Source of the DNA: Hormiphora californensis
Taxonomy: Eukaryota > Animalia > Ctenophora
Assembly (NCBI GenBank): GCA_020137815.1
Contig: CM035361.1
Location: 3,224,001-3,288,000 of the forward strand
DNA length: 64,000 bases
Reading direction: 5' to 3'
Numbering within the stretch: position 1 is the stretch's first letter; each line of letters opens with the position of its first letter. The translations under genes were made by a program, and so were the position numbers. This document shows positions 1,889 to 64,000 of the stretch, piece after piece. A model generated the notes under the pieces. The model was not told the origin of the DNA. It saw only the letters and a list, made by a program, of their open reading frames with translations, and ran no database searches.

Positions 1889-3767
1889 CGTTGCTATATC
1901 ATCCGGTGCTATATAAATATGGGGAGGAGTGGCCGATAAACTCTTGAGCTGTTCTATCGCCTCTGTTAGTGTGGCACTGAGAAAAAGGTAAGATAAAAAC
2001 AAAATTATGTTTATTAGATTAAAATTAGGTTAATTAGACTAATTAGTTTAATTAGTTTAATTAGGTTGAGTAGATTTCTTTTGTAAAGCAATTTATAAAA
2101 TTATTTTGAATTCTAGTTACCTGAAAAGAAGAGTCTGTCGTTTTTTTGGCAAATTTCCAAACACATCCGCTAAGTCCTTCTGGAAGCACGGTTCAAAAAG
2201 ACGATCTGCTTCATCGAGTACTAAGAACTGAATTTTACTGAGATCTAAACCGTCACCTGATGAGCGAATTAAAGGTAAGGTAAGGTTGAAACCCGATTTT
2301 TGTTGAAATCTACAACTCTATTAAATTTACCTGCCCTAAATTCTGTCGAAGTTCTACCGACATGCCAACAACTCAACTACTGTGTACTTATTGTAAATGA
2401 ACACAACAACAAAATATTTCAGGTTTTACCAGAGTTTATGTGATCAGCAAGTCGGCCCGGTGTAGCCACAATGACGTGTGGTTTTCGGGCTAGCTCGACA
2501 CTCTGGGTCAACATGTCCATTCCACCAACTATGACACTAACTCTCACACCTGAATGTTACGTGGATTCACCATGGTTACACTAACTCTCACACCTGATTC
2601 AGTTGTAACGTGGATTAAAAAGACTATAATACCATGGTTACCATGGTTACACTCACTCTAATACCATGGTTACCATGGTTACACTCACTCTAATACCATG
2701 GTTAAGAAATTTTGCTTACCAATATGAGCGCCGAGTGCAACAAACTGATCTTTGATTTGAAACGATAACTCCCTGGGAGATTACAGATCCGTTATAGCCG
2801 AGTTGAACTGTTTTTTGTGTCCTTTTTTAGCTTTTTTAGTGTGTCTGTTTTTAGTGTTTTTTAAATTCTTTTAGCAAATATCGTATGTGGGAGCACACTG
2901 AAGTAAGGACTGTTTTTGTGTGTCTGAATAAATTTTTACAATTATTGTCCTATACTATTTTAACTTCAAATCAATTCAAATTCTGTCTATTATATTGTGT
3001 ACCTGGTAGGTGTAAGTACAACTGCAAATATTCCATAAGGATCTGAGCTAAGCTTGTCGAGGATGGGCAGAGCAAAGGCGGCAGTTTTTCCTGAACCCGT
3101 CTTAGCACAACCAATACAGTCCTTACCTGGAGAGGGGGGGGGTGGAGTACTTAGTAAGTAGCGGGGGGTACTTAGTAACTAGTAAGTAAGAGAGAGAGAG
3201 TGGGGAACTTAGTAAGAAAGCTGGAAGGGAGATGGACTTCAAAAGAGATTCAACCAGAAGAGTACAGTGAGAAATATAGAAAGTACAATGAAATAGTGTT
3301 TATTTAGGACTGTAGACGACTCGGAGATTTATTTCAGGAAAGATAATACGGGACGGTTTCGACGTTTAACGTCATCATCAGCTCAAATTAATTTGTTTAA
3401 AGTAGTGTTGAAAAAACTTTTCAACACTACTTTAAACAAATTAATTTGAGCTGATGATACGTTAAACGTCGAAACCTTTCCTGAAATAAATCTCCGAGTC
3501 GTCTACAGTCCTAAATAAACACTATTTCATTGTATCAAAACTATGCGACTCAAAAACAGCCGATTGGTCAACTTATTGATTCAAAATAGAAAGTAATTGC
3601 CTTGTTTGAACAAAACATAGTTCAAAGTAAGAACTAAGAAGTTTCGCGGTCATACCTTCCAGTATGCTGGGTATACAGTTCAATTGTACAGGTGTTGGTG
3701 ACTTCATACCCAGACCACTACACTGCTGTTGTAACCATGTCTTCAATCCCAGCCCCTCAAAGGTCAT
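1889..3767 (-). CDS. DDX49: DEAD-box RNA helicase DDX49/DBP8, N-terminal half (exons 3767-3656, 3126-3003, ~2772-2720, ~2550-2429, ~2256-2121, ~1977-1889)
   Basis: Spliced translation gives [82 protein letters not shown] 1-nt frameshift follows DEADRL (~2196-2199). C-terminal exons were not found in the window. Confidence 0.85.
3284..3534. mobile_element. Head-to-head inverted pair of SL-capped hammerhead-core (Penelope-like/retrozyme-like) retro-copies in DDX49 intron 1
   Basis: ~125-bp arms form an inverted repeat. Each arm reads SL + CTGATGAT(G)ACGTTAAACGTCGAAAC... outward from the centre. Confidence 0.7.
3382..3450. other. Two spliced-leader exon copies back-to-back (minus 3382-3414, plus 3415-3450)
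   Basis: TTTTCAACACTACTTTAAACAAATTAATTTGAG on both strands. Identical to the sequence at the LINE 5' end 61956-61988 and matches the ctenophore SL as I recall it. Confidence 0.8.
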
Positions 3768-6600: not shown

Positions 6601-6730
6601 ACGCTTTCAGCCACTCAGACAGACGTTTCAGACAAAGGTTGTCAGTCAAAAAAGCTTAGGATAGGTCAACATAGCCGTTAATTTTTCAGTTCCAACAATA
6701 TTAGTTGGTACCGGCACTTTAAACGTTTAA

Positions 6731-13149: not shown

Positions 13150-33247
<20,098 letters not shown>

Positions 33248-37531: not shown

Positions 37532-38281
37532 TTAAGAAGCGCTTTATAGCGCTTGTTAAAGCGCTCGAAAGCGCTTTATAAAGCGCTTTTTATAGCGCTT
37601 TCTAGCGCTTTATAAAGCGCTATAAAAAGCGCTTTAAAGCGCCTCTTAAAGCGCTTTTTATAGCGCTTTATAAAGCGCTATAAAAAGCGCTTTAAAGCGC
37701 TTTATGAAGCGCTATAAATCGCTTTTTAAAGCATTCTATTCGGTTTTTGAATATTATTGTATGTAAATCCCACTTTTTCGTGATCACTTCCACTCCTTTT
37801 CAGATTAAACTGCGTTTCTGTTGGGGGCGATTATAATTTGGGTGCCTTGCAGCCTGTGTACAGGTGTGCGCTACCAAAAGAGTACACTTAGACCGAGTTT
37901 TTCAAATGTCTATAGTCATGCAACCACAAGGCCAATTTGAGTTAACTAAAGTCTCTTTTTGGGAGAGAGGGAGTGAAAGAGAGGGTACACCACGGAGCAC
38001 AGTTGCAGGTATGATATCCCCTCTTTCTTCTATCCTCCCGCGCTGTCTCTCTCAGTCTCATGTTATCGCGTGCGCTATGTTTAGTTCGGGATGGGGGCGA
38101 GTGAGGGATAGAGAAAGAGGGTATACCATTACCACGGAGGATTTTAATAGGTGCGGCGTTTTCGGGTGTGGCGGGCGCCATGTGAGGTTCACAGCCATAT
38201 CATGATGCTTTTCGGAATTTCTAGGGGGTGTAATTTTTACGCCGTAATCTGGCTGGTGGCTCCGGCTGGTTGAGACACAGT

Positions 38282-39035: not shown

Positions 39036-42000
39036 GACACAGTCTACAGCTAAAACAGTGTAAAGATGTTAGTTATGAGACTTGAATGGTCAATGGTGAC
39101 GTCAGACGTGTGTGTAGCTGGTATCAAGTCAATTGATTGAGAAATACGAATACAAGTGGCAAGTGCTGAGTCATGAGAGCAAGTCGAGAATCTCAACTCT
39201 CAAGACTCAACGGCAGACCGCAGACGGCACTCGGCAGAAGTAAGTGAAAACAAAGAAATGAATTCACTGCCAACTTATATTTGAGTCTGAACGGGCATGT
39301 TCCTTGGGTACGGTGCACCCTCTCTTTTTGGGAAGGGGGTAGGAGAGAGGGAGTGAAAGAGAGGGTACAACACGGAGCACAGCTTATTTGGACATATGCC
39401 GAGTTTTATTAGTGCAAATTTTCCCACGGCCGTGGGAAACTATGAAAGCTTCATGTGATGAGCTCGTTTTACTATAAAAAGCGCTTTCAAGCGCCTTAAA
39501 TAGCGCTTTTAAAAGCGCTTTAAAAAGCGCTAGAAAGCGCTTTTAAAAGCGCTAGAAAGCGCTTTTAAAAGCGCTTTATATAGCGCTTTAAAGCGCTTTA
39601 TATAGCGCTTTTTAGCGCTATTTAAAGCGCTTTTCAGCGCTAGTTAAAGCGCTAAAAAGCGCTTTAAAAAGCGCTATAAAGCGCTCTAAATAGCGCTTTA
39701 TAGCGCCTCGAAAAGCTCTTTAAGAAGCACTTTATAGCGCTTTATAAAGCGCTATAAAGCGCTTTTTAAAGCGCCACAAAAAGCGCTTAAGAGCGCTTTA
39801 TAGCGCTATAAAAAGCGCTTCATAGCGCTATTTAAAGCGCTTTATAGCGCTTTTTATGGCGCTTCAAAGCGCTTTAAAAAGCGCTAAAAAGCGCTTTGAA
39901 AAGCACTTTATAAAGCGCTAGAAAGCGCTTTTAAAAGCGCTTCCTAGCGCTTTTTAAAGCGCTTTTCAAAGCGCTTTTTAGCGCTTTATAGCGCTTTATA
40001 GCGGTTGAAGTAGCACATTTTATATCGCTTTAAAGCGCTTTAAAAAGCGCTTTTTAGCGCTTTAAGAAGCGCTTTTTAGCGCTTTAAAAAGCGCTTTATA
40101 AAGCGCTTTTTAGCGCTATAAAAAGCGCTTTTTAGCGCTATAAAAAGCGCTTTAAAGCGCTTTCTAAAGCGCTTTTTAAAGCGCTAAAAAGCGCTTTTAA
40201 AAGCGCTGTATAGCGCTATAAAGCGCTTTCAAATATGCTATATAAAGCGCTTTAAAAAGCGCTATAAAGCGCTTTGCAGCGCTTTATAGCGCTATTGAAA
40301 GCGATTTCTAGCGCTTTTAAAAGCGCTATAAAGCGCTTTATAGCGCTTTTAAAAGCGCTTTCTAGCGCCATTTAGCGCTTTATAGCGCTTTTAAAAGCGC
40401 TTTCGAAAGCGCTATAAAGCGCTAAATAGCGCTTTAAAGCGATCTGACGAAGCGCTTTATAGCGCTTCATAGCGCTTTTTAAAGCGCTTGCAAAACGCTT
40501 TAAAGCGCTAAATTTTGAAAATAAAGCGCTTTAAATCGGTGGCGCTTTAAAGCGCTTTTAAAAGCGCTTTATAGCGCTTTCGAAAGCGCTTTATATTGCT
40601 TCAGAAACCGCTATAAAGCGCTTTTAGCGCTTTAAAAGCGCTTTAAAGCGGTGCGCTTTAAAGCGGTATCGCTTTAAAGCGCTTTAAAGCGCTATAAAGC
40701 GCTTTCTCGAACGCTTTAAAGCGCTTTAAAGCGGTCGAAAATGTTCAGCCCAGAACTACCATATTACCGCTAAACGGTTAGAGATAGAGCTTAAAAGTCC
40801 GACGTCGACCCCCCATAACTTGGCTATTGCCTACAAAATGGCACCAGTGAAAAGTCTATAAACCATTCCTAAGTGGCTATAGCCATATAGCCAAAATACG
40901 GTTATGCGCATATCTAATTATCCAATTATCTAATTAACCAGATGAGATAGAGACTTAATTCCAGCACCTACCCCCACTAATGCGAGGACGCTACACAATC
41001 TAGTGCCCTTGATTTTTTCTCTACTCGTCTCCTAAGATGGTTTTTGGGTTTTCGTGCCAGGTTAGAAATACATGTATTTACATGTGTTTACTTTTTGCGC
41101 GCTCAGCGCACGTGCACACTTCCGATCATCGTATCTTTTTTTTGGTCATACTAGACACCTATCCGGACCTACTGGTGAAGAAATTAGCTTGTTGAAAATC
41201 TGATCCCTAATGTGTGGAATCCCATACCTGGACTTCTTAGGAACTGTATCAGCTCATCATGATCTGCACTGTTTCCACTCTCTCCTGGCATGAAGCCAAG
41301 TAGCATGCAGGCTCACGCCTAACTACAATTTGCCTTCATGCTGCGTACTTCAGTGCTTCACGCGTAGAGATGATGGCGTGAGGAACGTACGCGTACTGTT
41401 GGGTGTTATTTGCTGAGAGTTCATGATGAGTTGGGGATATTTTTCTTCTTCTGGTTTTTTTAACACACTGTGTATAACGGTTTTTTTTTTTTAATAAATA
41501 ACTCTATTAAAACAGTATAATATTAGTTTGATGCACAGATCTGTAGATAAACAATCAACTGTTATATATCGGGTTGATTCTGTAATTTCCAGAGTCCAGA
41601 CAAAATTTTCTTATCACAAGCTCGTCGAAAGATTACCTGTGATCACTATGCTTCATCAAAACTCAGAAGTTCAACTACCATTCCCAAAATAACAAGCACA
41701 ACGTGTCCTCTCTGTCTCTCTCGTGCTAAATCTAGCTCTATATCGTGTCTGGATTCTCGCTTCTATCTCTATCTTCGATCTCGCGCTATACTAGATCTAT
41801 GATCTACTCTCTCGTCTCTTCTAGAGCGACTCTCCATCTCTCTTCGCGCGAGCGATTGAATTGCGGATCTCTCGCGCGCCTCGCTCCGATAGCTCTCTCT
41901 CGCTACCGCTATCTTTTATCTCTCTTCTCTCTCTCTCTCCTCTGCTCCCCTCTACTCTCTCCTCTCTCTCTCTGATCTTCGCTCCGATACTCTCTCTCTC

Positions 42001-42049
42001 TCCTAATCTCTCGTCTCTCTCTCCCTCTCCTCTCGCTCCTTTTACCCAA

Positions 42050-42514
42050 TCTGTCAGAGTTAGCTCACTGACAGGAATAAAGTTACACAGATTAAACCAG
42101 TCTTTAATAGCTGTGAACAGGAACTTTTCCTCCTCCAAACTATCCGCATTTCCTGCCAAATTCTCCCCAAACACACCCCTGTTATAATAGGCACTGTGGA
42201 TCAGATCCGATTTCTTGGAGATTGATTTTGCCCAAGGTTCCGCTGAGAAAGTGGCTGTATCACTCCCGTAGCAGATTGGGGATTGGCCGTGGATGGTCCG
42301 ATATCGGTTGTGCTCCTGCATAATTAGGCGAGTGGGCCTTCCCAAGGTTCGGGTTGTAGCGGAGCATTCTTCGCGGGATAATCCTGAGGAGGAACTATGG
42401 GTTACAATTGTCAACATATAATAGAGGTGACACTTTCCTGAAGCTATAATAGAATTTACAAAACCTACCTGTGTGGAAAATTGCAAGTAGTATGATGGTA
42501 AGATATGACGTCAT
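42050..42514 (-). pseudogene. 3'-truncated inverted copy of the CAP-domain gene (exon 1 and part of exon 2)
   Basis: Near-identical to 8971-9622. Breaks after ELTLTD into a (GA)-rich tract. Confidence 0.85.
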
Positions 42515-43136
42515 AATGGTTGTTCAAATCACATTCTGGGCTTGAGAATAATGCTAAGGATAAATGATAATCACATTGTGGTTCGTACGGGAAGCCGGAA
42601 GGAAAGCAGTTATAAAAACCGAAAAACTGAAAAGCTTTAAACGTTTAAAGTGTTGGTACCAACTAATATTGTTGGAACTGAAAAATTAACGGCTACGTTG
42701 ACCTGTCCTAAGCTTTTTTGACTAACAACCTTTGTCTGAGACGTCTGTCTGAGAGTCTGAAAATAATGATAATAATAATAGTAACAGTTTATATCCCGCA
42801 CTGACACAGTTTATATACAGACAACTCGTTTTCCTTAATTTGAAAGGGACTGCAGTAGACTGCCTGCTCCTAGCACGGTTCTCTGATAACGGTGAGTTAG
42901 TGGGGAACTATCCCACTTGGATAACATTATTACGGATGAAGTAGCAGCCGTCAGGATCTTCTGATCGTATCCTCTTCAAAGTGGACCTTAGATTATTATT
43001 ATTATTATTAAATCTAAAATGTATACATTGGATAAAATACAACATATACTGCCCCTTTTTGTGGGCTAAATTGATAGTCATAAGGTTCCTTTTGAAGTCT
43101 CTTTAGAGTACAAATTAGGGGAGACTTGACCCATAT

Positions 43137-47186: not shown

Positions 47187-47313
47187 ATCTGTTTGTACTG
47201 CATTTTTAATCATTTTATTTCGGTTGAAGGTTGATTGTCTCAATGGTGTCCCTAACCTTACCCACTCCAATCTATTAAATGTAATCTCTACCTATCTCTC
47301 TCTCTAGCACTCC

Positions 47314-50300
47314 ATGGCACCAGTTTATCGGTATAACAAACGTTCAAGAACAACATCCCGTCAGTCATGGTCTCCAAATAGTATGAAGTGCGCCATCGCC
47401 GCCATCCACAACGGGGCATACGGGTATGATAGAGCGTCCAAGATTTATAATGTGCCGAAAGCCACGCTTTTTAGGAGGGCCAAAGGTACAAACAAGGTTG
47501 CCAGTGGAGTCCAAAAGGTTCTTGGTTCGGGGAGAACAGTGCTTACACGCGATATGGAGAAGAAATTAGCCGGCCATATATTAAAGATGGAGGAGATGCT
47601 ATTCGGTTTGGGGATTCGTGATGTCTGTCGGTTGGCGTACGAGTTAGCTGAACGAAACGGCCTGGCCCACAAATTTAATCGACGGACCAAAATGGCAGGG
47701 TACCATTGGTTTTATAGTTTTATGAGTAGGTTTCCTCATCTGTCGGTGAGAAAACCTGAATCTGTATCAGCTCAAAGGTCCCGATCTTTCAGTAAGAAGA
47801 ATGTTGACGAATTTTTTCATACGTACAAGATACTTCTGGATAAGGTCAAGTTTCTGGTCGTTGCGAGGATTTTTCACAAATTTTCATTTAGATATTTTAA
47901 TATGTTCCTATGATGACTGGTACTCATAATACCACTAGACCGGTGTACAATTGTTTACTCTAAATTTCTGTGAAAACTAGAACTCAATTGCTTGCTCTAA
48001 AGCAAAGTTATAGCCGTTTTAACACGTGCGGAGCAAAATTGTGCGGAGCCCCCTCTGGAGGTGATGTTTTCATCCTTTCTCCATGAAATTTTTGTATATG
48101 TTTAATCAAATTATTTCTACATATACTGTTTAAAAATGAAAAGTCGGGAACTCAAATTGTGCGGAGCACATCGATTTTTGTGGCAAATCTTACTCATTGG
48201 GGTTACTTACATTGACTTAACATTTTATTTATAAACTATTTGATTCTAGAGACATTTTAGGAGCTCATGGAGTCATCAGCTGGATCAATAAGTTTACTCA
48301 AATTAGTGTGGAGCCGATTTTTCCATATAACCAAAATATAGTCGTTGGCCGATCTGTAGTAATACTTCCAAATAGAGTAATAAGTCAAAAAGTATTAGGG
48401 GTAGCTTCTTTAAATAAGTGAATTAATTTGGCAAAACGATAGTGGAGCAAGATTCTTGTATATTTCGAAGATACTAACTCAAAATATGTGGAGCAAATAC
48501 TGATTTTTTGACAAAAACTGCTCCACATCGTTTGAGTTGCGGTTAAACCGGTTCTTGATTTAAAAAATTAGTTGTGCAGATAATTGGGTACCAACAACTT
48601 ACCATTTCAACCAGAAAAAGTTACTCAATTTGTGTGGAGGAGCCCCTAAAGGAGCCGTATCTGTGTCCAGACAGTCACAAAATTCGCCCAAAACCTTATG
48701 GCATGCCCTGTTTCTGATTCTCAGAGAGGAAAATCATTGCTCCCCTAGTTTTGAGTAAAGCTATACTAATGCTTGGTTAAATTATAACTAATATTTGGTT
48801 AAATACTCAATTGGTTGTAGTATAACTCGATTTATCAAGGCCAAAGCAACTGATGGTATTCCATGGTTTTATGTGTAATTGCTCCACACAATTTGAGTCC
48901 CATGATTAGGCAATATTATTACTGTAATATTATGGTCTGATGAACGTTATTTTGATGCAAATAAAACTTATTCTGTTATTATTCAAGGAGATAATTTATA
49001 CTGCGAAAATGGAGGGGGAAATCATGTTTTGCTCCACAAATTTTGAGTCATAAGATTAAATTACTGATAAAATAAGTACTGGTATGTTATTGTTGCCACT
49101 TAGCATACGTTTTTAGTTTGATTGCTTGTGAATTGAACCCGCAAAGTATCGAAGTAAAAAATAATAATTTGGACCCATGAATATAACACCTGCTCCTCAC
49201 AATATGAGCATATCAGGGTACATTTTTTTAGCATGGATACTTATTTTTAACATTTAGGAAAGGAGTTCGATTAATTTTAGAATCTAAAATTATGTTTATC
49301 TTTCCTCAAATGGGCAATAAAAAAGCTTCCCCTTCAAGCAGCTCTGGCTCCGCAAATTATGAGCAAATCGTTACTCATCGGTAATCACGGTTTAGTTTCA
49401 TAAATTATCTTAATATTTAAAAAGGTCCTACTGCTAAACTGATAAAACCTAAAAATCCAGAGAGCATTTAGCATCGTTGGGCTTGGGCTCCACATTATTT
49501 GAGTTTAAGTTCTAAAACGCATGTAGTATACTAATTTAAACATATTTACATAAGTATACTAAATTTTATGTTGATTCAAGTACTCTAAGATGTCCTAATA
49601 AAGGTTTTAAAAATTTTGGTGGAAAATCCAACACCAACTTTTCCCAAAATCCTCGCAACGACCAGAAACTTGACCATAAGCATTCGTTTCCACCCCACCT
49701 CATTTTCAATATGGATGAAAAGGGTGTAAGTACGGTTCCAAACTGTCCTCCTAAGATTATAGGCATGAGGGGTAAGAAACAGGTGGGAACAATGACAAGT
49801 GCAGAACGGGGAGTTAACACCACCGTTGTCGTATGTGGGAACGGGTCTGGAGAATTCATACCGCCGTATTTCATCTTCCCCCGTAAAAAGAAGAATCCAG
49901 AGTTCATGAAAAATGCTCCACAAGGTTCTGACTATCACGCCGAGACCTCTGGTTGGATGACCTATGAGGGGTTTAATCAATGGTTGAAATTCTTTATCGC
50001 AAGAGTCGGATGTACGGTGGAGAGGAAATGTTTAGTTATCCTTGATGGCCACATAACACATGTGAACAGCATAGCGGCGATTGAATTAGCAAGAGATAAT
50101 GGAGTGGAGCTCCTGAAATTTCCGCCACACTGTACACATAGAATGCAGCCCATGGACGTAACTGTGATGGGGCCTCTACAGACTGGATTTGCGAAACATT
50201 GTGCACTCTGGATGAGACAAAATCCTGGTTCCCAGATTAGTATTTACCAAATAGCTGAACTATTCGGGAAAGCTTTCGAGGGAACACGAATGACAGGAAA

Positions 50301-52970
50301 TTTAGCGTCCGGATTTAAAAAGTGTGGCATATGGCCGGTAAAGGAGGACATATTTGAAGGACAGTATGTGACAGCCCATCAGAACCCCTCAACAAGTGCC
50401 TTACCCCTGGGCCCTGGGCATCAGTCTGCCTCCGATCTCTCATCTGATGAAGGACATCCGGACACCAATTCCATTGACCCAGCAGACATAGTACCCCTTC
50501 CCACCATCACCTACAGTGGTGAAGGAAAACAACGGAGGAGAACCAACAGCAGTGCTGGTTCAGTGGTAATCACCAGTAGCCCGCACTTGAACAAGCTGAG
50601 ACTAGAGGACGAGAACCGGACCTTAAAAGAAGAGGTTAAAAGATTAAAAAGAGAACTGAAGGGTAGCAAGAAGACAATCCCCGATACCGACACGAGATCA
50701 GGAAAATCCTACAAGTGCAAGGCACGGGTGAGGAAACAACCACCTGCCGTGAACAGTAACACTGACGATGATCTCCCTCCTGTATCTCCAGTCCCACCAG
50801 GTAGGAAAAGAAAGTGTAAATGATAACTGGGTGTGAAGATTTACAGTTTTAATTCAATTCCATTCCTTTTTCACAACTCACGCCCCCTCCAGGTACAAGC
50901 AAGGGCAAGGCACGGGCCAGAAAACAACCACCTGCCGTGAACAGTAACACTGACGATGATCTCCCTCCTGTATCTCCAGTCCGACCAGGTAGGAAAAGAA
51001 AGTGAAATGATAACTGGGTGTGAAGATTTACAGTTTTAGTTCAATTCCATTCCTTTTTCACAACTCACGCCCCCTCCAGGTACAAGCAAGGGCAAGGCAC
51101 GGGCCAGAAAACAACCACCTGCCGTGAACAGTAACACTGACGATGATCTCCCTCCTGTATCTCCAGTCCGACCAGGTAGGAAAAGAAAGTGTAAATGATA
51201 ACTAGGTGTGAAGATTTACAGTTTTAATTCAATTCCATTCCTTTTTCACAACTCACGCCCCCTCCAGGTACAAGCAAGGGCAAGGCACGGGCCAGAAAAC
51301 AACCACCTGCCGTGAACAGTAACACTGACGATGATCTCCCTCCTGTATCTCCAGTCCCACCAGGTAGGAAAAGAAAGTGAACTGAAAACTGGGTGTGAAG
51401 ATTTACAGTTTTAGGCCCCTGTCTACCCTAATTCTGTTCCATGCATTTTTTACAACTCACGCGCACGTCCCTTCCAGTTACCGGCAAGTGTAAGGTACAA
51501 GCCAGGAAAAAGCTAACTTATCCCCCGAATCTCGACGATAATCTCCCTCCTGTATCCCCAGTCCCACCAGGTAGGAAAAGAAAGTGTAAATGATAACTAG
51601 GTGTGAAGATTTACAGTTTTAATTCAATTCCATTCCTTTTTCACAACTCACGCCCCCTCCAGGTACAAGCAAGTGCAAGGCACGGGCCAGAAAACAACCA
51701 CCTGCCGTGAACAGTAACACTGACGATGATCTCCCTCCTGTATCTCCAGTCCGACCAGGTAGGAAAAGAAAGTGAAATGATAACTGGGTGTGAAGATTTA
51801 CAGTTTTAGTTCAATTCCATTCCTTTTTCACAACTCACGCCCCCTCCAGGTACAAGCAAGGGCAAGGCACGGGCGAGGAAACAACCACCTGTCGTGAAAA
51901 TTGACGATAATCTCCCTCCTGTATCCCCAGTCCCACCAGGTAGGAAAAGAAAGTGAAATGATAACTGGGTGTGAAGATTTACAGTTTTAGGCTCTAGATC
52001 CGGTTTAAGTTAACTGGGTGTGAAAATTTACAGATTTAATTCAATTCCATTCTTTTTTCACAACTCACACCCCCTCCAGGTACAAGCAAGGGCAAGGCAC
52101 GGGCGAGGAAACAACCACCTGTCGTGAAAATTGACGATGATCTCCCTCCTGTATCTCCAGTCCCACCAGGTAGGAAAAGAAAGTGAAATGATAACTGGGT
52201 GTGAAGATTTACAGTTTTAGGCTCTAGATAGTAGATCCGGTTTAAGTTAGTTAGATCACACCCTGGTAAATGATAACTGGGTGTGAAGATTTACAGTTTT
52301 AATTCAATTCCATTCCTTTTTCACAACTCACACCCCCTCCAGGTACAAGCAAGGGCAAGGCACGGGCCAGAAAACAACCACCTGTCGTGAAAATTGACGA
52401 TGATCTCCCTTCTGTATCTCCAGTCCCACCAGGTAGGAAAAGAAAGTGAAATGATAACTGGGTGTGAAGATTTACAGTTTTAGGCTCTAGATAGTAGATG
52501 GGGGGGGGGGGGGTTCCAACCTATTTCTTGTATGTTTGTACAAAAATATACAAAAAAGTACAAAAAAATAAAAACAGTTTTATATGGTAATTTACCATTA
52601 CTAGCGCACCCATTGGGTGCGCCTCAAGTAAGGGCTTTTTGATAACCTATCCGGCTTCGCCGGGTGGTTCTTTTCGCCCCTTTTACCGTCAAAAACATGG
52701 TTGCCATGGCAACTGAATTGGTAACTATGGGGACTGGCGTCTTAAAATTCATTCGAAAATATAAACAAACTTCGACTGGAAGTTCCAAAAATGTAAACAA
52801 CAGCTTTGCAGCTTTGTGCACACAAAGTATTTTATGAAGGAGCAGTCTGTCGCGTAGATACCGCCTAACGAACGACCACTTCGACGTTCATCTCCAAATT
52901 ATAATAGAGACTAGAAAGCCCGTTGGTTGGACCCCGTTGATGTCTCTCTCTCCATCTCTCTCTCTTCCCC

Positions 52971-54496: not shown

Positions 54497-55687
54497 ATTT
54501 CTATTCCTATTTTATCTTTTTTAGATATTGAAAACTGTTGTCGTAATAGTATTAGCAGGGGCCATTCAAAAGGGACGTCCGTGATTTTTGTTCATTTTTC
54601 GACCCTCGGCCTCCATCCCCTTGTCCGAGTTTCGTGCACAATGCACACTCTCGGTCGAATTTCCCCTCTCCCTACCCTCGGACGTCAGTTTTGAATGGTC
54701 CCACAGTAAATAAAAGAGGGAGGCAAATAAACTGGCTGTAACAGTTCGTGTTCCACGTTCGCGTGTGTGTCCCACTTTCGTGTCTGACCTGTCCTTCGTC
54801 CGAATTCACCATCAGTAACGCGCTGAGGAAATGAACCAATCAAAGTTCATGTGCGCCATGTGTGGGTGCGCCTTTTTAGGAGGCGCGTTCGTTTGTTCCC
54901 GGGAACCAGATGCGTTTAGTCCATACCTTCTGTGTTTGTTATCGTTTTTATCCATGTTTGTACCTCGTTGGGTTATGGGAAGGGCCCAGTGAAGATGAAA
55001 ACAGTGCAGGTTCATTTATATGATGGTGCCGTAACCGTTTAACTCATTGGGATAGTTTTAAGGTCAAATGGGATAGGCCATATTGGCAAAACATTTGGTC
55101 ATATGGGATATCCCATTTTGCCAAAATGGACTATCCCATTTAGCCAAATAAATGCTATCCCGTATAACCTAATTTTTAAAACGCTGTACATTTTTTTTCC
55201 CAAATGGAATACCAGCATATCTCTACTAAGGGCTTATTTTAAGCTTTAAATGACACATTGGGGAAATAAAATGAATGATTTAATGACCATCTACCAAAAA
55301 ATTTTAGGTATTAGACTAAATCGTTGAACAGGACAGACCTAAACAAGATAGTGGTTCATATGGGTCAAGTCTCCCCTACATGTAGCAGGTCAGCCACATT
55401 TAATTACCCCCCTGCTAACCCAGTATCGTCCATTCGGATTGTCTCGCCTCAGTCCTTTCACTGTATCAACGAGAGTTTTCCGCTCTCGCTGCTCCTCCGG
55501 TGTTAGGTCGGGGGAGAGAAACACCGAGGAGAATTTCTCTGAATCTCGGAGCTGTTTTGCTTTTCTTAGAAGTTGTAACAAAGTTTCCCTCCTTTCAAGT
55601 GTAACAATTACTGGTCTCGGTCGGTTATCAGTCTTTACCTTAGAGCTTTTTGCTCTTTCAGTTCAGAGGGCGTAAGATCCGGAGAGA

Positions 55688-56791
55688 TTTATTTATTTAT
55701 TATTTATTAAATCTATATAATAATTTACACAGTTTGATGTATAAAATTATCAGCCCCTTTTTGTGGGCAAAAATCGGTTGATCAAAGATATGAGTCCATT
55801 TAAGAGTCCAGTTTATATAGATAGTCTATGAAAAGTTTATCGCTCCTTTCCGTATCCGAAATTGTCTTTCGGGATTCGATTCCCTTAACTCCTTCAATGT
55901 AAGGTGGAGTTCCCTCCTCTCCGTTCTCTCTGCGAGTGACATATCTCTTGACAAGTATACACCGCAGTACGATTCGGACTGTTTCAACTGCCTAGCCTTC
56001 TGGAGAAGGCTCAGCAGCATTTCTCTACTCTGTAGCTTCACGATCACGGGTCTCTCCCTTCCTTCCCGTTTCAAACCCACCCTTTTAGCTACAACAATAG
56101 GTTTCTCATCAAGCTCAGCCAAAACATTCTCTATCTCACATTTCAACACAGATTCAGATTCCGCCTCAACTTCCGGTAGACCAAACACCATCAGATTTTT
56201 GGATCTGTCTGGATCTGGACTCGAATCAACTTTTTTGCCATGAGCTTTCCCTTCATCTTTCTTGATATTTTTCGGTGCAAGAGCAGACCTACAATTCTGC
56301 GTCAAGACCGTTGAGAAAGAACGCAGATCTTTCTGTACTGTTTCGGTTACTCGATGTAGTTGAGTGTCCTGGAGCTCAATGACCTGCTCTTGTAACCTAA
56401 CAGTCTTTCTCAACAGGTCATCCATCTCAACTCTCAATATCTCCTCTTTTTTCTGCAACTCCAAACTCTTTCTCAACAGTTCATCTCTTTCTTCCTTTAA
56501 TTCCAACTCAGGCGACTTCTCGACGTTGAAATGATGTTGGAAGTACTTTAGAAGTGGCAAGGTCGACAGAAATACATCTTCTAATACAGATGCCAAATCA
56601 CGTTTCGAGTGGGATGAGTGGATATTGAAAGATGTCGGTATTTCCCTGATATCCTCGGGGCTAGCCCTTAACTTTCTGGTTAAATCCGGTGAAGGAATCC
56701 CTGCATACTTGACCATGGTCAGGATCCGGCTCGCATACCAATCCAAATCAGCCTGAGTCAGCTCCTCTTGATGTACTGGAATAACTGTCAT
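55688..56791 (-). mobile_element. ORF1-only derivative A; ORF 56791-55826 (321 aa, coiled coil + L1-like RRM/CTD-type ORF1)
   Basis: NLMVFGLPE...RPVIVKL...VYLSRDMS.AER..R. The stop is followed by a 138-nt 3'UTR and (TAAA)n tail; no RT. Confidence 0.85.
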
Positions 56792-57514
56792 ATAATAATA
56801 ATAATAATAATATCGAATATTTATATCCCGCTATCATGCGTTAAATATGCTAGTTCACTACTCGTTTAAACTAGAACTTAAAGATATACTTAAAGAACAC
56901 CGAGATTATCGTTAAAACTAACACCGCGTCTATAGCGGCCTTCTCATAGCCAGAGGAATGCCATTCAAGCTAATTTTGATCAAGAAATAATAATAAAGAG
57001 AGAAGATTTAGTCCGAGGAAAAAAGTATAAAAAATACGTTATGGTATAAAAAAGAAGAAAAGATAGATGATTGTGATTTGAATATTGTTAATTAGTAAGA
57101 ATTAGGGTGGAGTCATGTTGAAATAGTGTGAGGGAAGTGAAATAAGTTGAAAAAGTTCATCGAAGTGGATAATGTGGAAAGGCAGTGACTAAGGTTGGAC
57201 AAAATTGATACAACAAAAAAAAAAAAAAAAAAAAGAAAGAAAGAAAAGTGAGTGATAACAGCTGGGTAGCTTGAGTCAGATTGAATAATACAGATTACTT
57301 TTTGATTAAAAATAATAAGTTAATTGGGTGATTAAAATAATAAATTAGTGGATTAAGAATATTTTTATCATAAAAATAAATTATAATCAGTTGTAGCAAA
57401 ATAAAGTGATGTGCTGTGATTAAATTGTGTGTGTGTGGGCTTGTCTTTACGGATCTAGTCTTGTCTTTTCTTTAGCTCAAAGTTAGTCAACTAGGACCCA
57501 TAGACAAAGATGTA

Positions 57515-60500
57515 TTATCGGCAGGATGGGTTTAGAATCTTGGCCTTCGATTTACGTGGTTGAGTCACTGTGTTCGTACCACTGTTACTATCTGGATAAG
57601 CGACGGTGAAAAGATGAGTTTTCAACATTTGCTTGAAAGTTTCAAGAGATGATACTTCTCTTAGGCTTTTAGGTAGTTTGTTCCAAATCTTAGGTCCGCA
57701 TACACTGAACGCTTTCTGAGTGGTAAGATATTTTGTATCATGGCGTTTTTCCACTAGGGTTAGGTCATCATCAAGACGAACTTTTCTGGCCTTCGGCTGT
57801 CTGCGCATAATCATGTCTGACAGATACTCAGGCACAAGTCCATGTATACATTTATAGACCAGGAGGCAGACTTTGAAAACGATTCTTTGCTCGACCGGAA
57901 GGAAATGAAGTTTCTTCCTCATTTCAGTAACTCCTCGCTTTCCTTTCGATCCATAGATAAATCTAGTGGCACTGTTTTGCACTTTTTGTAGTCGTTGCAA
58001 ATCCCGTTTTGAAAGTCCAACGAGTAGTCCATTACCAAAATCTAGCCTTGAGTGAACAAGTTGATGTACAAGTTGAGTCTTTAGCTGTACAGTGAGTCCT
58101 TTCCTGATCCTCCATAGATTTGCCAGCTGGCTCCAACACGACTGGATAACTCGGGACACATGGGATGACATTGAGAAGGTTTGGTCAAACCAGACACCTA
58201 AATTTCGAGCTTCTGTGGATGGTTCAGTCGGGATTTTGTCACTCTTTTGCAGGAAGATCGATGTCGGATTAGGTGACTTGTCTGCTTTATTGTTGATCAC
58301 GACAATTTCGGTTTTACCTGAATTTAGCTTTAGATAGTTAGCTTTCATCCACCATTTGATGTGTTGAAGGCAGTCTTGGATTTTCTCAAAAATGATGTCC
58401 TCATTGGCTGGATCAAAGCTGATATACAACTGGGTATCATCTGCATACATGTGCACGTGTAGCCCATAGATACCTGCAATGTCTTGAATCTCTCGTGTAT
58501 ACATAATAAAGAGGATGGGACCCAAGATTGATCCTTGAGGGACACCTATCTCGATTTCGATTGAAGGAGACATTTCATCTCCTGTATCAACCGAAGACGT
58601 TCTACCAATCAAGTAGGATTTGAACCACTTTAAGGCCGTCTGCTTGATGCCATAGTAATTATACAGCTTGTCTAACAGAGTGGTATGTTTAACAGTATCG
58701 AAAGCTGCGCTTAAATCAAGCAACAGTAGAATCACTTTTGATTTGCTATCCATCAACAGAAGAATGTCATTGAAGATCTTAAGTGTCGCTGTCTCACAGG
58801 AATGATACTTCCGGTAGGCCGATTGCTTGGTGGGCAAGAGCTTGTTTGCTTCGAGATATTCAATCAGTTGTAATGAAGCGCATTTTTCAACAACTTTTGA
58901 GACAAAGCTAAGGTTGCTTATCGGCCTATAACTGTTTAGTTCCTCAGAATCCAGATCCTTACCTTTAAACGACGGACGGATGATGGCTTCTTTGAAGACT
59001 TTTGGAAATACACCTTTTGTTAAACTGTCGTTAACAATCCGTGATAACACAGGTATAAGCTCAGGAAGTGCGTCACTGACCATACTTGAAGGCATTGGAT
59101 CCAGAGAACAATGCTTCTTGTTCATATCACGAATAGTTCTGGCCAGTTCCTCATCGGTCACAGGTCTAAACTTAGTAAGCGATGATGTACAGGTTATTGG
59201 TTCAGGTTGAGTTGTTGGGGTTGGAACATCCTCAGCCTCAATCACAGAGTATATTTTTGTTACTTTAGCTTTGAAGAACTCGTTGAATCTGGTTGCTAGT
59301 GGAGTTGCTTCCTTTTTTGATGGCAGTGTTGAAGGTGTTTTTTCCTTTCCAAGCAAACTGTTGACCACTCTGTGTGTAGATTTCGGGTTTCCTTTTACTC
59401 GTTCTAGTTTTTTACTGACAAAACTAGCTTTGGCATTACCAAGAACTTTGGATGCGAACTTGCTGGTGCTTTTCCAACAGTGGTATTTTAAGACAAGTTT
59501 CTTAGGATTTGTCTTCTTTAGACGAGCACGTCTCCAGCGTCGTTCGGCTCCTCTACGTATTCGACGAGCATTTTGGCAAGTAGGCGTTCTTATCCATTGG
59601 GGTTGGTCTGGGTGCTTTATCCTCTTTTCTTCTTCAGGGGCAACTTTGTCTGTGATGGACTGGAGAGTTCTGTTGTATAGCACAACACATTCTTCTTGGT
59701 CGGCTGGAAGCGCTTCAGAAAGTTTGGAGTTTCTAATGAGTTCACGAAGATTCGCTGGGTCAACTTCTTTGAAATTTCTGCATTTTTTCAATACTTCGTC
59801 GTCCTTCATCTTTAGTGGTATTCCTGCTGTGCACTTTACTAAATAGTGGTCTGGGGCAGGAGGCACAGGGTATGACTCTATTTCAGTTACTTCAATTCCA
59901 TCTGGCATTCCATGAAATAAATGTGGAATGTGTTCTTCATTTATTTCGTCAAGTTTGCTGCTGCGGAACGGGGCACCAATGGTGTCAGAGAGTGGGGCAA
60001 TATCCTGGGTAAGGATAAGATCCAGTGTGCCTCCTTTGATGTGGGTCGGTCCAGTTACTTTATTTCTCCAACCAAACTGGTTCAGAAGTTCATTGAATTT
60101 TCGCGTTTGGGGATCTAGGTTGTCCTCGACATGAATATTGAAGTCTCCACATATTAAACAGCGCTCTTTCCTCTCTGCTAATTTCAGAAAAAGATCCTCT
60201 AGTTCATCTAGAAACGCAGTAAACTGGCCCGAGGTGCCAGGCCGGTACACTACAACTATCCTGGTATTAGTAGGTTCTTTGAGGAGAACCTCAAGGCATT
60301 CGAACTGCTTAAACTTGTGACAATACTTACTTGTTTTCGTCCTCCTTCTGGTAACTAAAGCTACACCACCTCCTCTACCTACACGTGGATGTGATACTAT
60401 GTTGAAACCTGCTTCTTTGAAAAGAGCACAGAGAGCACCATCGTCCTTTTTCATCCATGTTTCTGTTAGTGCAAAAGCGTCTAAGTCTTCATCTACTGCA

Positions 60501-60613
60501 AGTTCCAGGATATCGATTGCTTTGTTCCGCAGAGAAAAGCAGTTAAGGAGCCCAAACCTGAGCCTTCTGGACACAGTTAGTTTTTTGACATGTACTGGAG
60601 ACGGATGGGGCAT
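57515..60613 (-). CDS. LINE ORF2: apurinic endonuclease + reverse transcriptase (1032 aa, intact)
   Basis: LTETW, GDFN, PTH..G.TLDL, DH; YRPISNL, LLDLSAAFDTV, GVPQGSILGP, YADDTQLY. Confidence 0.97.
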   Translation of the reverse strand: MPHPSPVHVKKLTVSRRLRFGLLNCFSLRNKAIDILELAVDEDLDAFALTETWMKKDDGALCALFKEAGFNIVSHPRVGRGGGVALVTRRRTKTSKYCHKFKQFECLEVLLKEPTNTRIVVVYRPGTSGQFTAFLDELEDLFLKLAERKERCLICGDFNIHVEDNLDPQTRKFNELLNQFGWRNKVTGPTHIKGGTLDLILTQDIAPLSDTIGAPFRSSKLDEINEEHIPHLFHGMPDGIEVTEIESYPVPPAPDHYLVKCTAGIPLKMKDDEVLKKCRNFKEVDPANLRELIRNSKLSEALPADQEECVVLYNRTLQSITDKVAPEEEKRIKHPDQPQWIRTPTCQNARRIRRGAERRWRRARLKKTNPKKLVLKYHCWKSTSKFASKVLGNAKASFVSKKLERVKGNPKSTHRVVNSLLGKEKTPSTLPSKKEATPLATRFNEFFKAKVTKIYSVIEAEDVPTPTTQPEPITCTSSLTKFRPVTDEELARTIRDMNKKHCSLDPMPSSMVSDALPELIPVLSRIVNDSLTKGVFPKVFKEAIIRPSFKGKDLDSEELNSYRPISNLSFVSKVVEKCASLQLIEYLEANKLLPTKQSAYRKYHSCETATLKIFNDILLLMDSKSKVILLLLDLSAAFDTVKHTTLLDKLYNYYGIKQTALKWFKSYLIGRTSSVDTGDEMSPSIEIEIGVPQGSILGPILFIMYTREIQDIAGIYGLHVHMYADDTQLYISFDPANEDIIFEKIQDCLQHIKWWMKANYLKLNSGKTEIVVINNKADKSPNPTSIFLQKSDKIPTEPSTEARNLGVWFDQTFSMSSHVSRVIQSCWSQLANLWRIRKGLTVQLKTQLVHQLVHSRLDFGNGLLVGLSKRDLQRLQKVQNSATRFIYGSKGKRGVTEMRKKLHFLPVEQRIVFKVCLLVYKCIHGLVPEYLSDMIMRRQPKARKVRLDDDLTLVEKRHDTKYLTTQKAFSVCGPKIWNKLPKSLREVSSLETFKQMLKTHLFTVAYPDSNSGTNTVTQPRKSKAKILNPSCR

Positions 60614-61890
60614 TGCGGATCAGCTGCATTGTGAGTATGAGCAAATGATTGAATGGATGGGTTACGTGATTTAGAACAATTAGAACATTTAAAGGCAGAC
60701 CAATTTTTCTTGTTAGGGCATTCTCTGGCAGAGTGCTTCTCAGAACAACGGAAGCATGTTGGATCCTTCGCTTTACAATCACTCGCATAATGACCGAAAT
60801 TTTGACACTTAAAACATTGTTTTACAAATACTCGCTCTTCTACAAAACAGTTATAATTGCCAACATGAATAGAACCACTGCTAAGAATCAGATCACCAAC
60901 AGGTTTGCTGACCTTCAACCCAATAGTGGCTTCATTCTCATTTCGACTGTGCCTCTGAAACGACACAACAGACATCTTCTCTCCTCTTTCCAACAATTCA
61001 GCAACTCTTGGGTTAAGCTCACAAATAGAATCTAAAATCATCGTATCTGTCTCATCCCTGTCAGTAATGTGCTTAGCAATAAAAGAAACATCAGCACCTC
61101 GAATAGATAGTTTAGGCTCATGTACAAATTTTCTCATATCAACATTCACATTTTGAGATGCGACTTTTGTCACTGCCTCGTTCATTTCGTCAGCACTTTT
61201 GAACCAGTATTGTACTGATCCGTCTTTCTTATTCTTCTTATACTCAGTAGGAATCTTGGCAAGTACACCATTAGCACTGTTGATATCATTAGCTTCTCCG
61301 GATATAACAAGCCGTGCACTGCCCAAATGAGCCTCAGAATAAGGCACAGAATAGGGCACATTTGTTTGTCCATCAGCGGCTGCAATTGGCTCTTTTTGTT
61401 TAGCAACTTCGGTAGACACGGTTGATGTTATAACAGCAGCGATTTGTTCCTCAAATTTCCCTAGCATAGATTGCTCAAATGTTGCCAGTTTATCCTCAAG
61501 AATCCTCTGGGTTAAAGGGGAAGGCTCATCTTCATCCTTGTTGTTACAGGTAGGACAGAACCAAGCTAGACCCTCGTTCTGATTTATGAGGGCACACATT
61601 CTATCATCATCCAGTGTCTTAGAGCATGACTTGTTTCGGCACGTTATTGTATTGTCTCCGGTTAGAGTTGATGGGGCATTGGAGGACGCATCAGTTTGAG
61701 CCTCTACTAGATCTTTGGACAGTTTAAACGACTGCTTCAGTAGCTTCAGAAGGACTGCACGAGACGGATTGTCAGCCGGGGGTTTGTTGGTACCTTTTAG
61801 GACATAGGTTAGTAGTCCTTTTGCCTCTAGGTCATTCCCCAAGCTTATCACCTTATCGCTCAGCTTTATCATCTGCTCCTTGTTTATCAT
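60577..61890 (-). CDS. LINE ORF1 with partial PHD-like motif and three Cys/His knuckles
   Basis: WFCPTC; CFKCQNFGHYASDC, CFRCSEKHSAREC, CSNC...H....PQC. Met 61890 is conserved in the second copy, where the upstream ATG frame is closed. Confidence 0.9.
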   Translation of the reverse strand: MINKEQMIKLSDKVISLGNDLEAKGLLTYVLKGTNKPPADNPSRAVLLKLLKQSFKLSKDLVEAQTDASSNAPSTLTGDNTITCRNKSCSKTLDDDRMCALINQNEGLAWFCPTCNNKDEDEPSPLTQRILEDKLATFEQSMLGKFEEQIAAVITSTVSTEVAKQKEPIAAADGQTNVPYSVPYSEAHLGSARLVISGEANDINSANGVLAKIPTEYKKNKKDGSVQYWFKSADEMNEAVTKVASQNVNVDMRKFVHEPKLSIRGADVSFIAKHITDRDETDTMILDSICELNPRVAELLERGEKMSVVSFQRHSRNENEATIGLKVSKPVGDLILSSGSIHVGNYNCFVEERVFVKQCFKCQNFGHYASDCKAKDPTCFRCSEKHSARECPNKKNWSAFKCSNCSKSRNPSIQSFAHTHNAADPQCPIRLQYMSKN

Positions 61891-61955
61891 GACTATCGAT
61901 GTCGGTTTTCGTGTTATCTGCCCTTCGGGGCGGTCACATAGCATTCATCTTCCTG

Positions 61956-61997
61956 CTCAAATTAATTTGTTTAAAGTAGTGTTGAAAAGTTTGAAAC
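61956..61997 (-). other. Spliced-leader exon fused to the LINE 5' end
   Basis: GTTTCAAACTTTTCAACACTACTTTAAACAAATTAATTTGAG|CAGGAAGATG. Confidence 0.85.
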
Positions 61998-63451
61998 AGC
62001 CGAAAACTGTTTGGAGTCTTTGAGGTTTCGTGCCTTTCTGAGGAGCGCGAGGAGAGTCGCTCTCTTCTCCAGGGATACTAAGAGCGGTCTAGGGCGCTTC
62101 TCATTTCTTTCGCCGATGCGTTTTATCGTAGTCACTTGAAAGCGTGCACGGGCAACGGAGCAAACACGCTTCTGGCATTAGACTTAAAAGCTCAAATTCA
62201 AATTAAATTCAAATCGTGAAATTAAAACAACATCAGAAGCATTTTTCGAGTTCAAGTTCAAATCGGAAGTTAAAAGAAGAAGACAAAGAACCACTTTTCG
62301 GAAGTGAAACCACTTTTCGGAAGTGAAACTTTTGAATTTTTTAAAAAAACTGGCTTTTTTAAATTTATTAATCAAAATATGCGCGGCGCCTTCACTTAAT
62401 CGAATTTGCGCTGCCTTTTAAACGGTGCCCGCAAAAAATTCCAATAAACGATGCCAAAAACGGCGCGCATTCGTGGTTACCCTCGCCGCGTTGCTGGACG
62501 AGTTCACGTCGGATTTTTTGAAGTTGTCACCCCCCTTTTCGTGCGCGGAATGTTTTTGCGCGTCACATCACATGTTAACGTGTGGTGTGCGCGTCAAAAT
62601 TGATAAATTTCACATGCGCGGTCATTTTGGGGTGACAACTTCAAAAAATCACGTTTGGCACGACCAAAAATTTAAACTTGAACTTTTTAGTTGGAATGCG
62701 CTGCAGCCCCCTCATGCGCGCACCCCCGCAACGAGGGGACTGGAGGGAATGCCGCGCGCGCGTTTGGCCTGATCCCGGCTGGGTCGAAGATAACTTTGCG
62801 GTCGAAAAAACGGCGGTGCTTATAACTTTGGCTCCTGAAGTCCGTTTGACTTGATTCTTTCACCAGTTGTTAGATCTGACGATTATCTACCTTGCTGTTT
62901 TTGAGAGAAGTTAATTGGACTTAAGGAGGCTGAGCAATAGCCGTTGAAAGATGGGTTGTTTTCAAAAAGTGACGTCACAGATTCTTGCAGGGACACCTTT
63001 TTTAAAATTTCATTCAAATTTTGATTTTACCGCACTCGATTTTGCGGAGTTTGGTTCATATCTCCTGTTCCTGATAAGATAGAGACCTGAAACCGGTTGC
63101 ATTTGAAAGCTGTTATCTTCCTCTTTCCAACGCTACCAAAACGATTTCTGTACCTTATCTGGAACCGGAGATATGATTGATTATGTATTCCCCCCTAGCG
63201 CGGTATTCCCTCCAGGCCCCTTATATTATATTATAAGGGGCCTGCAACGTATGCCAAACTTTTTAGAAAACAGTTTTTGTCGCAAGTTTCTCTGACATGC
63301 GACACAGACTGAAGACCCCTCGTGTACCGACCTCTGTGGAACGACCACCGTAAAGTCCATTTTTATTCAACTGTTCACCCTCCAACTCGTGCGCGTACGA
63401 TATTTTAATTTACGCTGCGCGCGCTGCACGTTAACATGTGATAGACGCGCA

Positions 63452-64000
63452 AAACTTTCAACACTACTTTAAACAAATTAATTTGAGGAAGATGAATGCT
63501 ATGTGACCGCCCCGAAGGGCAGATAAACACGAAATCCCTGACATCGATAGTCATGAAGAACACGGAGAAGATGATAAAGCTGAGCGATCAGTTGGCAAGC
63601 CTGAAGAATGAACTAGAGGGAAAAGGACTGCTAACCTATGTCGTAAAAGGTACTCACAAGCCCGCTTCCGACAACCCAACGCGTGGAGTCCTGTTAAAGC
63701 TCCTAAAAAAGGCATATAAACTGTCCGAAGAGCTAGTAAATGCCCAAACTGACGCGTTCTCCAATGCACCATCAACTGTAACTGGAGAAACTACAATCAC
63801 GTGCCGTAACAAGTCGTGTCCTAAGACGCTGGATGATGACAGAATGTGTGCCCTTATAAACCAGAACGAGGGTCTGGCTTGGTTCTGTCCTGCCTGTAAT
63901 AACAAGAACGATGAGCCATCCCCTCTAACACAGAGGATTCTTGAGGATAAACTGGCGACATTTGAGCAATCAATGCTAGGGAAGTTTGAGGAACAAATCG
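63452..64000 (+). mobile_element. Second LINE of the same family (diverged subfamily): SL 63452-63487, ORF1 from 63553 runs off the window
   Basis: AAACTTTCAACACTACTTTAAACAAATTAATTTGAG|GAAGATG. MKNTEKMIKLSD...WFCPAC is homologous to the ORF1 at 61890. Confidence 0.9.

Follow-up and report, generated by a model that had tools for sequence, protein, structure and literature searches.

A 64,000-nucleotide stretch of the genome of the ctenophore Hormiphora californensis (GenBank assembly GCA_020137815.1, contig CM035361.1, positions 3,224,001 to 3,288,000 of the forward strand; hereafter the window) was found to contain two diverged copies of a long interspersed nuclear element (LINE), both of which start with a DNA copy of the host spliced leader (SL). 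The join falls at the exact end of the SL exon in unrelated elements, and for this reason the template of the LINE was very likely an SL-trans-spliced, and thereby SL-capped, RNA, as proposed in a preliminary description of the same DNA. The evidence also leans slightly towards a promoterless cycle, in which the copies renew their leader each time by read-through transcription and repeated trans-splicing at the 3' end of the integrated SL.

The motif at the head of the copies is the ctenophore SL. Window positions 61956-61997 on the minus strand were aligned to the published 44-nt leader of H. californensis and matched its last 42 nt at 42/42 positions, which bears out the earlier identification. 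The published SL is carried by 56% of Iso-Seq reads and has 718 genomic copies (PMC8527503). A 10-mer search of the window gave four exact SL 3' ends, at 3382(-), 3450(+), 61956(-) and 63487(+), and a 30-nt SL search of the whole window with up to 8 mismatches returned the same four sites and no further one. The chance expectation of a 24-mer of the SL is 3e-9.

Metagenome contigs were scanned with an SL 24-mer, which gave at least 121 loci, 41 of these with only about 300 nt per side. In 108 of the 121 listed loci the SL ended no more than 44 nt from the contig start and was followed by differing ORFs (open reading frames), with a median distance of 11.5 nt from SL to first ATG. One of the 108 (L015) is an element with an ORF1 only, and most others are mRNA-like, so the concern that the motif might be missing from host mRNAs did not materialize. 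The first trinucleotide after the SL was tallied in the 108 mRNA-like contigs, a tally that without genomic DNA is blind to acceptor choice. The remaining 13 loci comprised three mRNA-like contigs with a few extra letters, one fold-back chimera, a tandem pair of SL RNA genes (L087/L088), four two-ORF LINEs (L028, L039, L042 and L064), one ORF1-only element (L071) and two unassigned loci (L081 and L085). L087/L088 form a separate, candidate ctenophore SL RNA gene with a 43-nt exon, a GT donor directly after it (SL/GTAAG; here and below the slash marks the end of the SL) and a tandem period of 778 bp on one contig. About 60 nt upstream of the exon lies what we take to be a motif like the proximal sequence element, and no Rfam family matched the candidate gene. 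The exon is 43 nt long and a C stands directly before it, so the first G of the published leader may come from the cap.

The LINE copies consist of the following parts:

56792..57514, minus strand: 3' untranslated region (UTR) of copy 1 with (TAT)n tail, a simple-repeat tail; no long terminal repeat (LTR)
57515..60619, minus strand: ORF2 of copy 1, 1034 aa stop to stop, APE endonuclease and reverse transcriptase (RT), without stop or frameshift
60577..61890, minus strand: ORF1 of copy 1, 437 aa from the likely start Met; frame open stop to stop over 60577-61944
61891..61955, minus strand: 65-nt leader of copy 1 with CAG, short upstream ORF and hairpin
61931-61920, minus strand: GCCC-loop-GGGC hairpin in the leader
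61948-61934, minus strand: short upstream ORF ending ATG-stop in the leader
61956..61997, minus strand: DNA copy of the SL exon heading copy 1, 42 nt
63452..63487, plus strand: DNA copy of the SL heading copy 2, 36 nt (32 exact plus AAAC)
63488..64000, plus strand: leader of copy 2 (without CAG) and 5' part of its ORF1, Met at 63553; ends at the window edge

Judged from its sequence, copy 1 (61997 to 56792, minus strand) is an intact two-ORF APE/RT LINE of the Jockey group, L2/CR1 lineage; both ORFs are free of stops, as had been noted. ORF2 matched the profiles PF03372 (N-terminal APE, E 1e-14) and PF00078 (RT, E 2e-28), and its closest named relatives are Mnemiopsis leidyi proteins at 44% identity. 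The label of L2 clade is consistent with this anatomy and rests on C-terminal motifs that we take to be those of L2. ORF1 gave one zf-CCHC match (E 1.7e-4); it may resemble type IC (PHD, RRM, three CCHC), to judge by this single profile match and by visual inspection, which suggested three knuckles and a PHD-like cluster of Cys. The leader length of 65 nt, which agrees with the distance first described, counts to the Met at 61890. Another in-frame ATG lies 11 nt after the SL, and the Met at 61890 is favoured as start because the relative P0011 begins there and because a copy from another organism (organism B, below) has a 5-nt insertion between the two ATGs. The only AG within the SL copy is formed by its last two bases, its first four nt (GTTT) are common to the target and constitute a microhomology, and the junction reads SL/CAGGAAGATG. 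The first 40 nt or so of the leader are common to ORF1-only families, and its likeness to a ribozyme or to an upstream LINE 3' end is limited to the GCCC/GGGC hairpin. The tiny upstream ORF ending ATG-stop ahead of this hairpin is kept at 61934-61948, 63492-63506, L015 and L071, possibly as a translational control or packaging signal. Rfam gave no meaningful family in the window, just sub-threshold hairpin matches (among the best 150 of 205), and no family in the 8 loci tested. Viral contigs had no match to two sequence patterns nor to alignment A2, and alignment A3 gave nothing useful among PDB sequences or Pfam.

Copy 2 runs off the window end and is visible up to 64000 only. Its SL has lost one T from a T-run and is joined to a repeat through A-run microhomology, the sister repeat at about 62520-62600 representing the empty site. 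The junction reads SL/GAAGATG, one NAG apart from that of copy 1, as first described. The two copies align solely over 61440-61993 versus 63450-64000 (85% identity), and no alignment was obtained between their flanks, which bears out the earlier view that two diverged copies with unrelated surroundings start at the same SL. In 149 codons of ORF1 the copies are 84.6% identical, with 21, 9 and 39 differences at codon positions 1, 2 and 3. Since the differences fall mostly on third positions, the copies are, on this count, diverged coding lineages and no fresh duplication. The copies stand head to head, 1.45 kb apart, with a spacer (61998-63451) built of repeats, among them 62149-62509 (87% identical to 6243-6603) and a short inverted repeat at 62512-62650.

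The site into which copy 1 was inserted could be reconstructed from the following segments:

61994..62135, minus strand: upstream half of the target, the C-terminal part of an L015-like ORF1-only element, 88% identical to L015 767-908
55635..55688, minus strand: downstream half of the target, 80% identical to L015 912-962
55689..56791, minus strand: piece of an ORF1-only element with a 321-aa ORF (55826-56791), a 3' hairpin (55753-55768) and a (TAAA)n tail

Both sides of the target match consecutive parts of L015, so that 55689-61997 sits in one split target, joined through the 4-nt microhomology. No target-site duplication was observed and about 2-3 nt were lost. Contigs of X5, one of the sequencing runs described below, pass from 61994 straight into the sequence of window 55660-55688 and thus show the empty target. 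The LINE tail lies at 56792; the insertion as a whole probably runs on to 55689, because the target is split between 61994 and 55688. The ORF1-only piece at 55689-56791 abuts the LINE tail inside the same split target. Most likely a LINE first inserted itself into an ORF1-only element and the two were then carried along on one read-through transcript (3' transduction), in which case an integrated copy would have acted as the source. Alternatively, the piece may be a nested earlier insertion, or the composite 3' part may stem from a later insertion at exactly the 5' terminus of the element or from a template jump.

The 321-aa ORF is a member of an ORF1-only element family with 26 relatives (P0134-P0159), and those with contigs lie nearly all on contigs of 0.9-2.0 kb. 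Its predicted fold, coiled coil-RRM-C-terminal domain, matches human L1 ORF1p with E 2.5e-6 (model pLDDT 65.5). L015 of the ORF1-only family starts with the same SL/CAGGAAGATG and has its first 40 nt in common with the window LINE. In DNA-type runs the depth of leader-sharing ORF1-only contigs exceeds that of the LINE 10-20 times. The ORF1-only elements, far more abundant than the LINE, are likely to be its non-autonomous partners. SL-headed ORF1-only elements of about 1.1-1.4 kb, in which no RT was seen, were noted at 55689-56791, 55393-55688, 61994-62138 and 42908-42991 as well as in L015 and L071. Tailed insertions with the same 3' hairpin recur in the C-terminal part of L015-like elements (42850-43070 and 55635-55690), possibly owing to a target preference or to a patch rich in transposable elements.

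Four further two-ORF LINEs beginning at an exact SL of 40-43 nt (L028, L039, L042 and L064) were present in public marine metagenome contigs; these families, and the ORF1-only elements starting at the exact SL, are new in this analysis. L039, L042 and L064 have intact APE and RT ORF2s, whose identity is 33-39% to the window ORF2 and 56-66% among themselves. Among the four ORF1s, identity ranges from 43 to 59%. The leaders of L039, L042 and L064 measure 145-188 nt to the first ATG, unlike that of the window LINE, and the leaders of the five LINE families have nothing obvious in common besides the SL. The same (TAT)n tail as in the window LINE is carried by L042 and L064. All five SL matches of one assembly are accounted for by L028, L039, L042, L064 and L085, with 0 host mRNAs. 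This assembly was taken as DNA because about 100 and 38 nt of flank precede the SL in L028 and L039 and because L042 and L064 continue beyond their (TAT)n tails; the latter two show just 5-6 nt of upstream flank, and the DNA nature of their assembly is indirect. The length of SL kept at the heads of retrocopies varies from 33 to 43 nt, which indicates uneven 5' erosion. The ORF2 of L042 contains an in-frame tandem Gly-rich repeat of 12 aa, about 8 units, between endonuclease and RT.

The 5' ends of the window LINE family were followed in contigs of four sequencing runs, X3 and X5 (organism A, two samples), X9 (organism B) and X1, which were aligned to 61830-61973 with 18 nt of SL. No SL-free 5' end of the family was found in the contigs of 4/4 runs (3 samples, 2 species labels), and the longer SL-free 5' UTR that had been named as an outcome contrary to the proposal was not encountered. 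There were 11 loose ends, of which 10 were downstream (9 where a leader-sharing family diverges, 1 inside a copy-2-type ORF1) and one upstream. In X3 the contig with the SL/GAAG junction has a depth of 199 compared to 196 for the LINE body, and in X9, with the second species label, one contig spans the whole 61830-61973 stretch as SL/GAAG. The run X1 is listed as 'DNA?'; its depth is 3.9 million on the SL versus 5.8 on the LINE body, which points to RNA. X1 also contains the exact copy-1 5' region and an SL/CAG junction contig of depth 58.8, the latter mostly from the leader-sharing family. Contigs that pass from flank into SL were seen in RNA-like runs (X1 record 6; X19 records 12 and 14-16) and in L081. 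As to tandems of SL relics, one SL match per locus was counted in all 80 loci listed (contigs, not reads), alongside the one X3 joint given below.

Neither copy 2 nor the copy of organism B has the CAG, which the leader-sharing families retain. Of the two, the copy of organism B is the closer to copy 1: over 144 nt it shows 6 other letters and 2 indels, with a 5-nt insertion between the two candidate ORF1 ATGs, against 12 other letters and 3 gaps over 107 nt for the copy-2 type. Thus, the two lineages without CAG would not be nearest relatives of one another, suggesting either two NAG-exact losses or a loss and a regain.

A cycle that fits these observations can be proposed. During LINE insertion the target is nicked by ORF2p, which then reverse-transcribes the RNA, beginning at the (UAU)n tail and stopping close to the cap. 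An outron or promoter upstream of the trans-splice site could not be copied into the new insertion, which would therefore be without an upstream promoter and be entered by flanking transcription. The AG-free, U-rich SL copy would end in the first AG, and this AG or that of the CAG 3 nt further on would accept a fresh SL. The old leader would be replaced and not stacked, 5' erosion would be repaired without a tandem relic, and use of the second AG would trim exactly CAG. Renewal by read-through is favoured because no SL-free form was found in the family's contigs, because uneven 5' loss does not accumulate, because the sole AG of the SL copy is terminal, because contigs of RNA-like runs pass from flank into an SL, and because of the distribution of the missing CAG. 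The SL also stays exact despite the deep divergence of the families, which appears to fit renewal better than inheritance.

A number of observations weigh against renewal. Rare variants are lost from contigs, which could conceal an SL-free master, and the search amounts to a failure to find; the SL-based contig scan selects for the SL and cannot count SL-free LINE families. The sole upstream loose end (X3 record 9) belongs to another leader-sharing family and retains 5 nt of SL, preceded by an AT-rich flank; it is either a 5' truncation or a native acceptor. In X5 the depth of SL/CAG (866 versus 932 for the copy-1 body) fits plain subfamily inheritance, X1 has no CAG deletion listed for SL/CAG, and SL/CAG is also the form in the 10-20-fold deeper leader-sharing contigs. 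A strong-looking acceptor, TTTTAG or TTTCAG, is kept 6 nt after the SL in L071/L081. The kept SL/CAG, TTTTAG and TTTCAG count against renewal because routine re-splicing should trim such acceptors, and GAG is generally the weakest NAG acceptor. One X3 joint has a partial SL ahead of an SL. X1 and X19 are RNA by inference or guess, and their flank-SL contigs could be DNA. An RT tree made by a quick method from 64 rows (4 SL-led and 60 of 120 relatives, these being unnamed and Mnemiopsis rows) is compatible with one origin of the SL-led elements; it does not separate the SL-led lineages from the Mnemiopsis rows, and no dating is claimed. Finally, an upstream cis donor outcompetes the SL (PMC4558846).

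The persistence of SL/CAG, SL/TTTTAG and SL/TTTCAG would be explained if the SL was captured occasionally and then inherited in the 5' UTR, with an internal RNA polymerase II promoter in the leader that starts near the first base of the SL and re-trans-splicing as an occasional refresher. Such a promoter could reside in the leader motif of 40 nt, which is conserved in elements whose ORFs are unrelated, and internal promoters are usual for LINEs, as in L1Tc with Pr77 and unspliced transcripts. Between the leaders of the five LINE families, however, no obvious likeness exists outside the SL; none of the retrocopies includes the part of the SL gene ahead of the exon, where its promoter would lie; and without renewal the uneven 5' loss would accumulate. 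An internal promoter is thus rather unlikely, although of all alternatives to renewal it survives best.

Ordinary host-gene logic would instead place a promoter and outron at one or a few SL-free master loci, the SL-led copies being mostly dead-on-arrival progeny. The loss of rare paths from contigs could hide such a master, and X3 record 9 may be its upstream sequence for a sister family. For the window family, nevertheless, no SL-free upstream sequence was found in the contigs of the four runs, and a LINE cannot copy its outron, so the persistence of every diverged family would call for a fortunate master of its own. The ORFs are moreover intact in the SL-led copy 1, L039, L042 and L064. A hidden master is therefore considered improbable, a little more so than an internal promoter. 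Addition of the SL at integration, by template switching of the RT onto SL or SL-capped RNA, or an assembly chimera with cDNA, is very improbable. LINE RTs do switch templates, and such a jump may have produced the composite 3' part, but the junctions lie exactly at the exon end and never include the SL intron, the same junction was present both in X1 and in DNA-type contigs from three samples, and X5 shows the target without the insertion. Site-specific targeting of SL RNA genes in the manner of NeSL/CRE elements, which exist (PMC3636483) and would find tandem SL genes in L087/L088, has next to no probability and is largely refuted by the flanks, since the upstream flanks of 11/11 retrocopy-type loci are unlike that of the SL gene, 0/4 window copies have the GT donor and SL intron of such a gene, the downstream flank is an ORF1-only element and the window LINE has an APE enzyme and two ORFs.

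Renewal by read-through and repeated trans-splicing, if true, predicts that the activity of a copy hinges on its landing site and on trans-splicing. The SL head is also a built-in tag for 5'-complete copies. A wider proposal holds that promoters were given up altogether by ctenophore LINEs, by the ORF1-only elements that accompany them and by small retroposed RNAs, with the host spliceosome excising each element from passing transcripts, capping it and mending its 5' end in every cycle, and that most of the hundreds of genomic 'SL loci' are retroelement heads; it is tentative and was given somewhat less than even weight. An SL route also suggests that many of the 718 SL matches of H. californensis are retroelement heads and not SL genes, which bears on annotation and on the spread of the SL.

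The other two SL copies of the window lie in a different kind of element:

3284..3534: inverted pair of short SL-headed non-LINE elements, with SLs at 3382-3414(-) and 3414-3450(+)

Each SL is followed by the same sequence of about 100 nt, and the inverted repeat of 3284-3534 is 88% identical. The preliminary description had the SL capping an unrelated RNA at 3382-3450; the SL does stand on a non-LINE element there, in the form of two head-to-head SLs in DNA, and an RNA origin would imply that the SL also heads other retroposed RNAs. After each SL follow CTGATGA, a 5-bp stem, GAAAC and then AATAAA, and the SL stands in place of the would-be 5' strand of stem I. We presume that CTGATGA-stem-GAAAC is like the minimal hammerhead core of Penelope-type elements; no hammerhead match was found in Rfam at 3250-3415. 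A DEAD-box helicase exon, its motif read by eye, lies at 3000-3130(-), and the pair may be intronic. Other features of the window were pieces of a pogo/Tigger-type DNA transposase (HTH_psq and DDE_1 matches at 47308-47913 and 49540-50823), self-complementary low-complexity arrays of AGCGCT and A/T runs with inverted common flanks (35128-36141, 37537-37732 and 39472-40733), a 95% identical duplicated segment (9236-9624 and 42049-42434) in two ORFs of 302 and 229 aa without Pfam match, and an ORF piece with an Ephrin_rec_like domain at 18334-18963, likely a host exon.

A LINE with an SL head is a variant of a known process, the retroposition of trans-spliced RNA, and such heads are more widespread than the preliminary description saw. 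SL-headed LINEs of ctenophores were not found in print, Repbase and the supplements of PMC8527503 being outside the search. In the accessible part of that genome paper the SL matches are not tied to transposable elements, and its supplements may describe the 718. Partial-SL loci at LTR and LINE elements are known from parasitic flatworms (597 loci), with a passing suggestion (Calvelo et al. 2025, PMC12582326). In the accessible text this is a remark on discarded loci, without family anatomy, junctions, intact copies or a renewal model. In the ctenophore, unlike at the flatworm loci, intact families normally start with an almost whole SL. The relict-SL retrogenes of dinoflagellates are retrocopies tagged in DNA by the SL, which can be transcribed and trans-spliced again (PMC12014239, PMC5585692, PMC6050394). 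Like these, the window elements carry a DNA-encoded SL at the 5' end of retroposed sequence. The dinoflagellate retrogenes, as far as described in the accessible text, are host genes copied in trans that stack tandems of SL relics, whereas in the ctenophore the retrotransposons themselves are concerned and the old leader would be exchanged at the terminal AG of the SL instead of being stacked. In Hydra about 30% of the Iso-Seq reads of transposable elements carry the SL (PMC12220107). These elements use host trans-splicing at the RNA level, and genomic copies starting with the SL are not stated in the accessible text.

The APE and RT ORF2 and the simple-repeat tail of the window LINE, and tentatively its ORF1 plan (partly read by eye), are like those of L2/CR1-lineage type IC LINEs, in which ORF1 has a PHD, an RRM and three CCHC and which fall in L2 subgroup 2 and CR1 subgroup 3 (PMC4120745). 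Unlike in these, the 5' end of the window LINE is the host SL. To NeSL/CRE elements the likeness is that of an element next to SL sequence; their defining features, a single ORF with restriction-like endonuclease and insertion in SL genes (PMC3636483), both fail in the window LINE. LINEs carry their promoter inside the RNA or are cut from a co-transcript. The latter is the case for R2, which has a self-cleaving ribozyme. R2 is co-transcribed with 28S (PMC3636483), and in R2 and L1Tc (Pr77) a defined 5' end comes from the co-transcript or from the element's own first bases. Unlike in R2 and L1Tc, the 5' end of the window LINE would come from the host spliceosome, cap included, and the SL route, if true, would add to these two solutions a third that the host provides.

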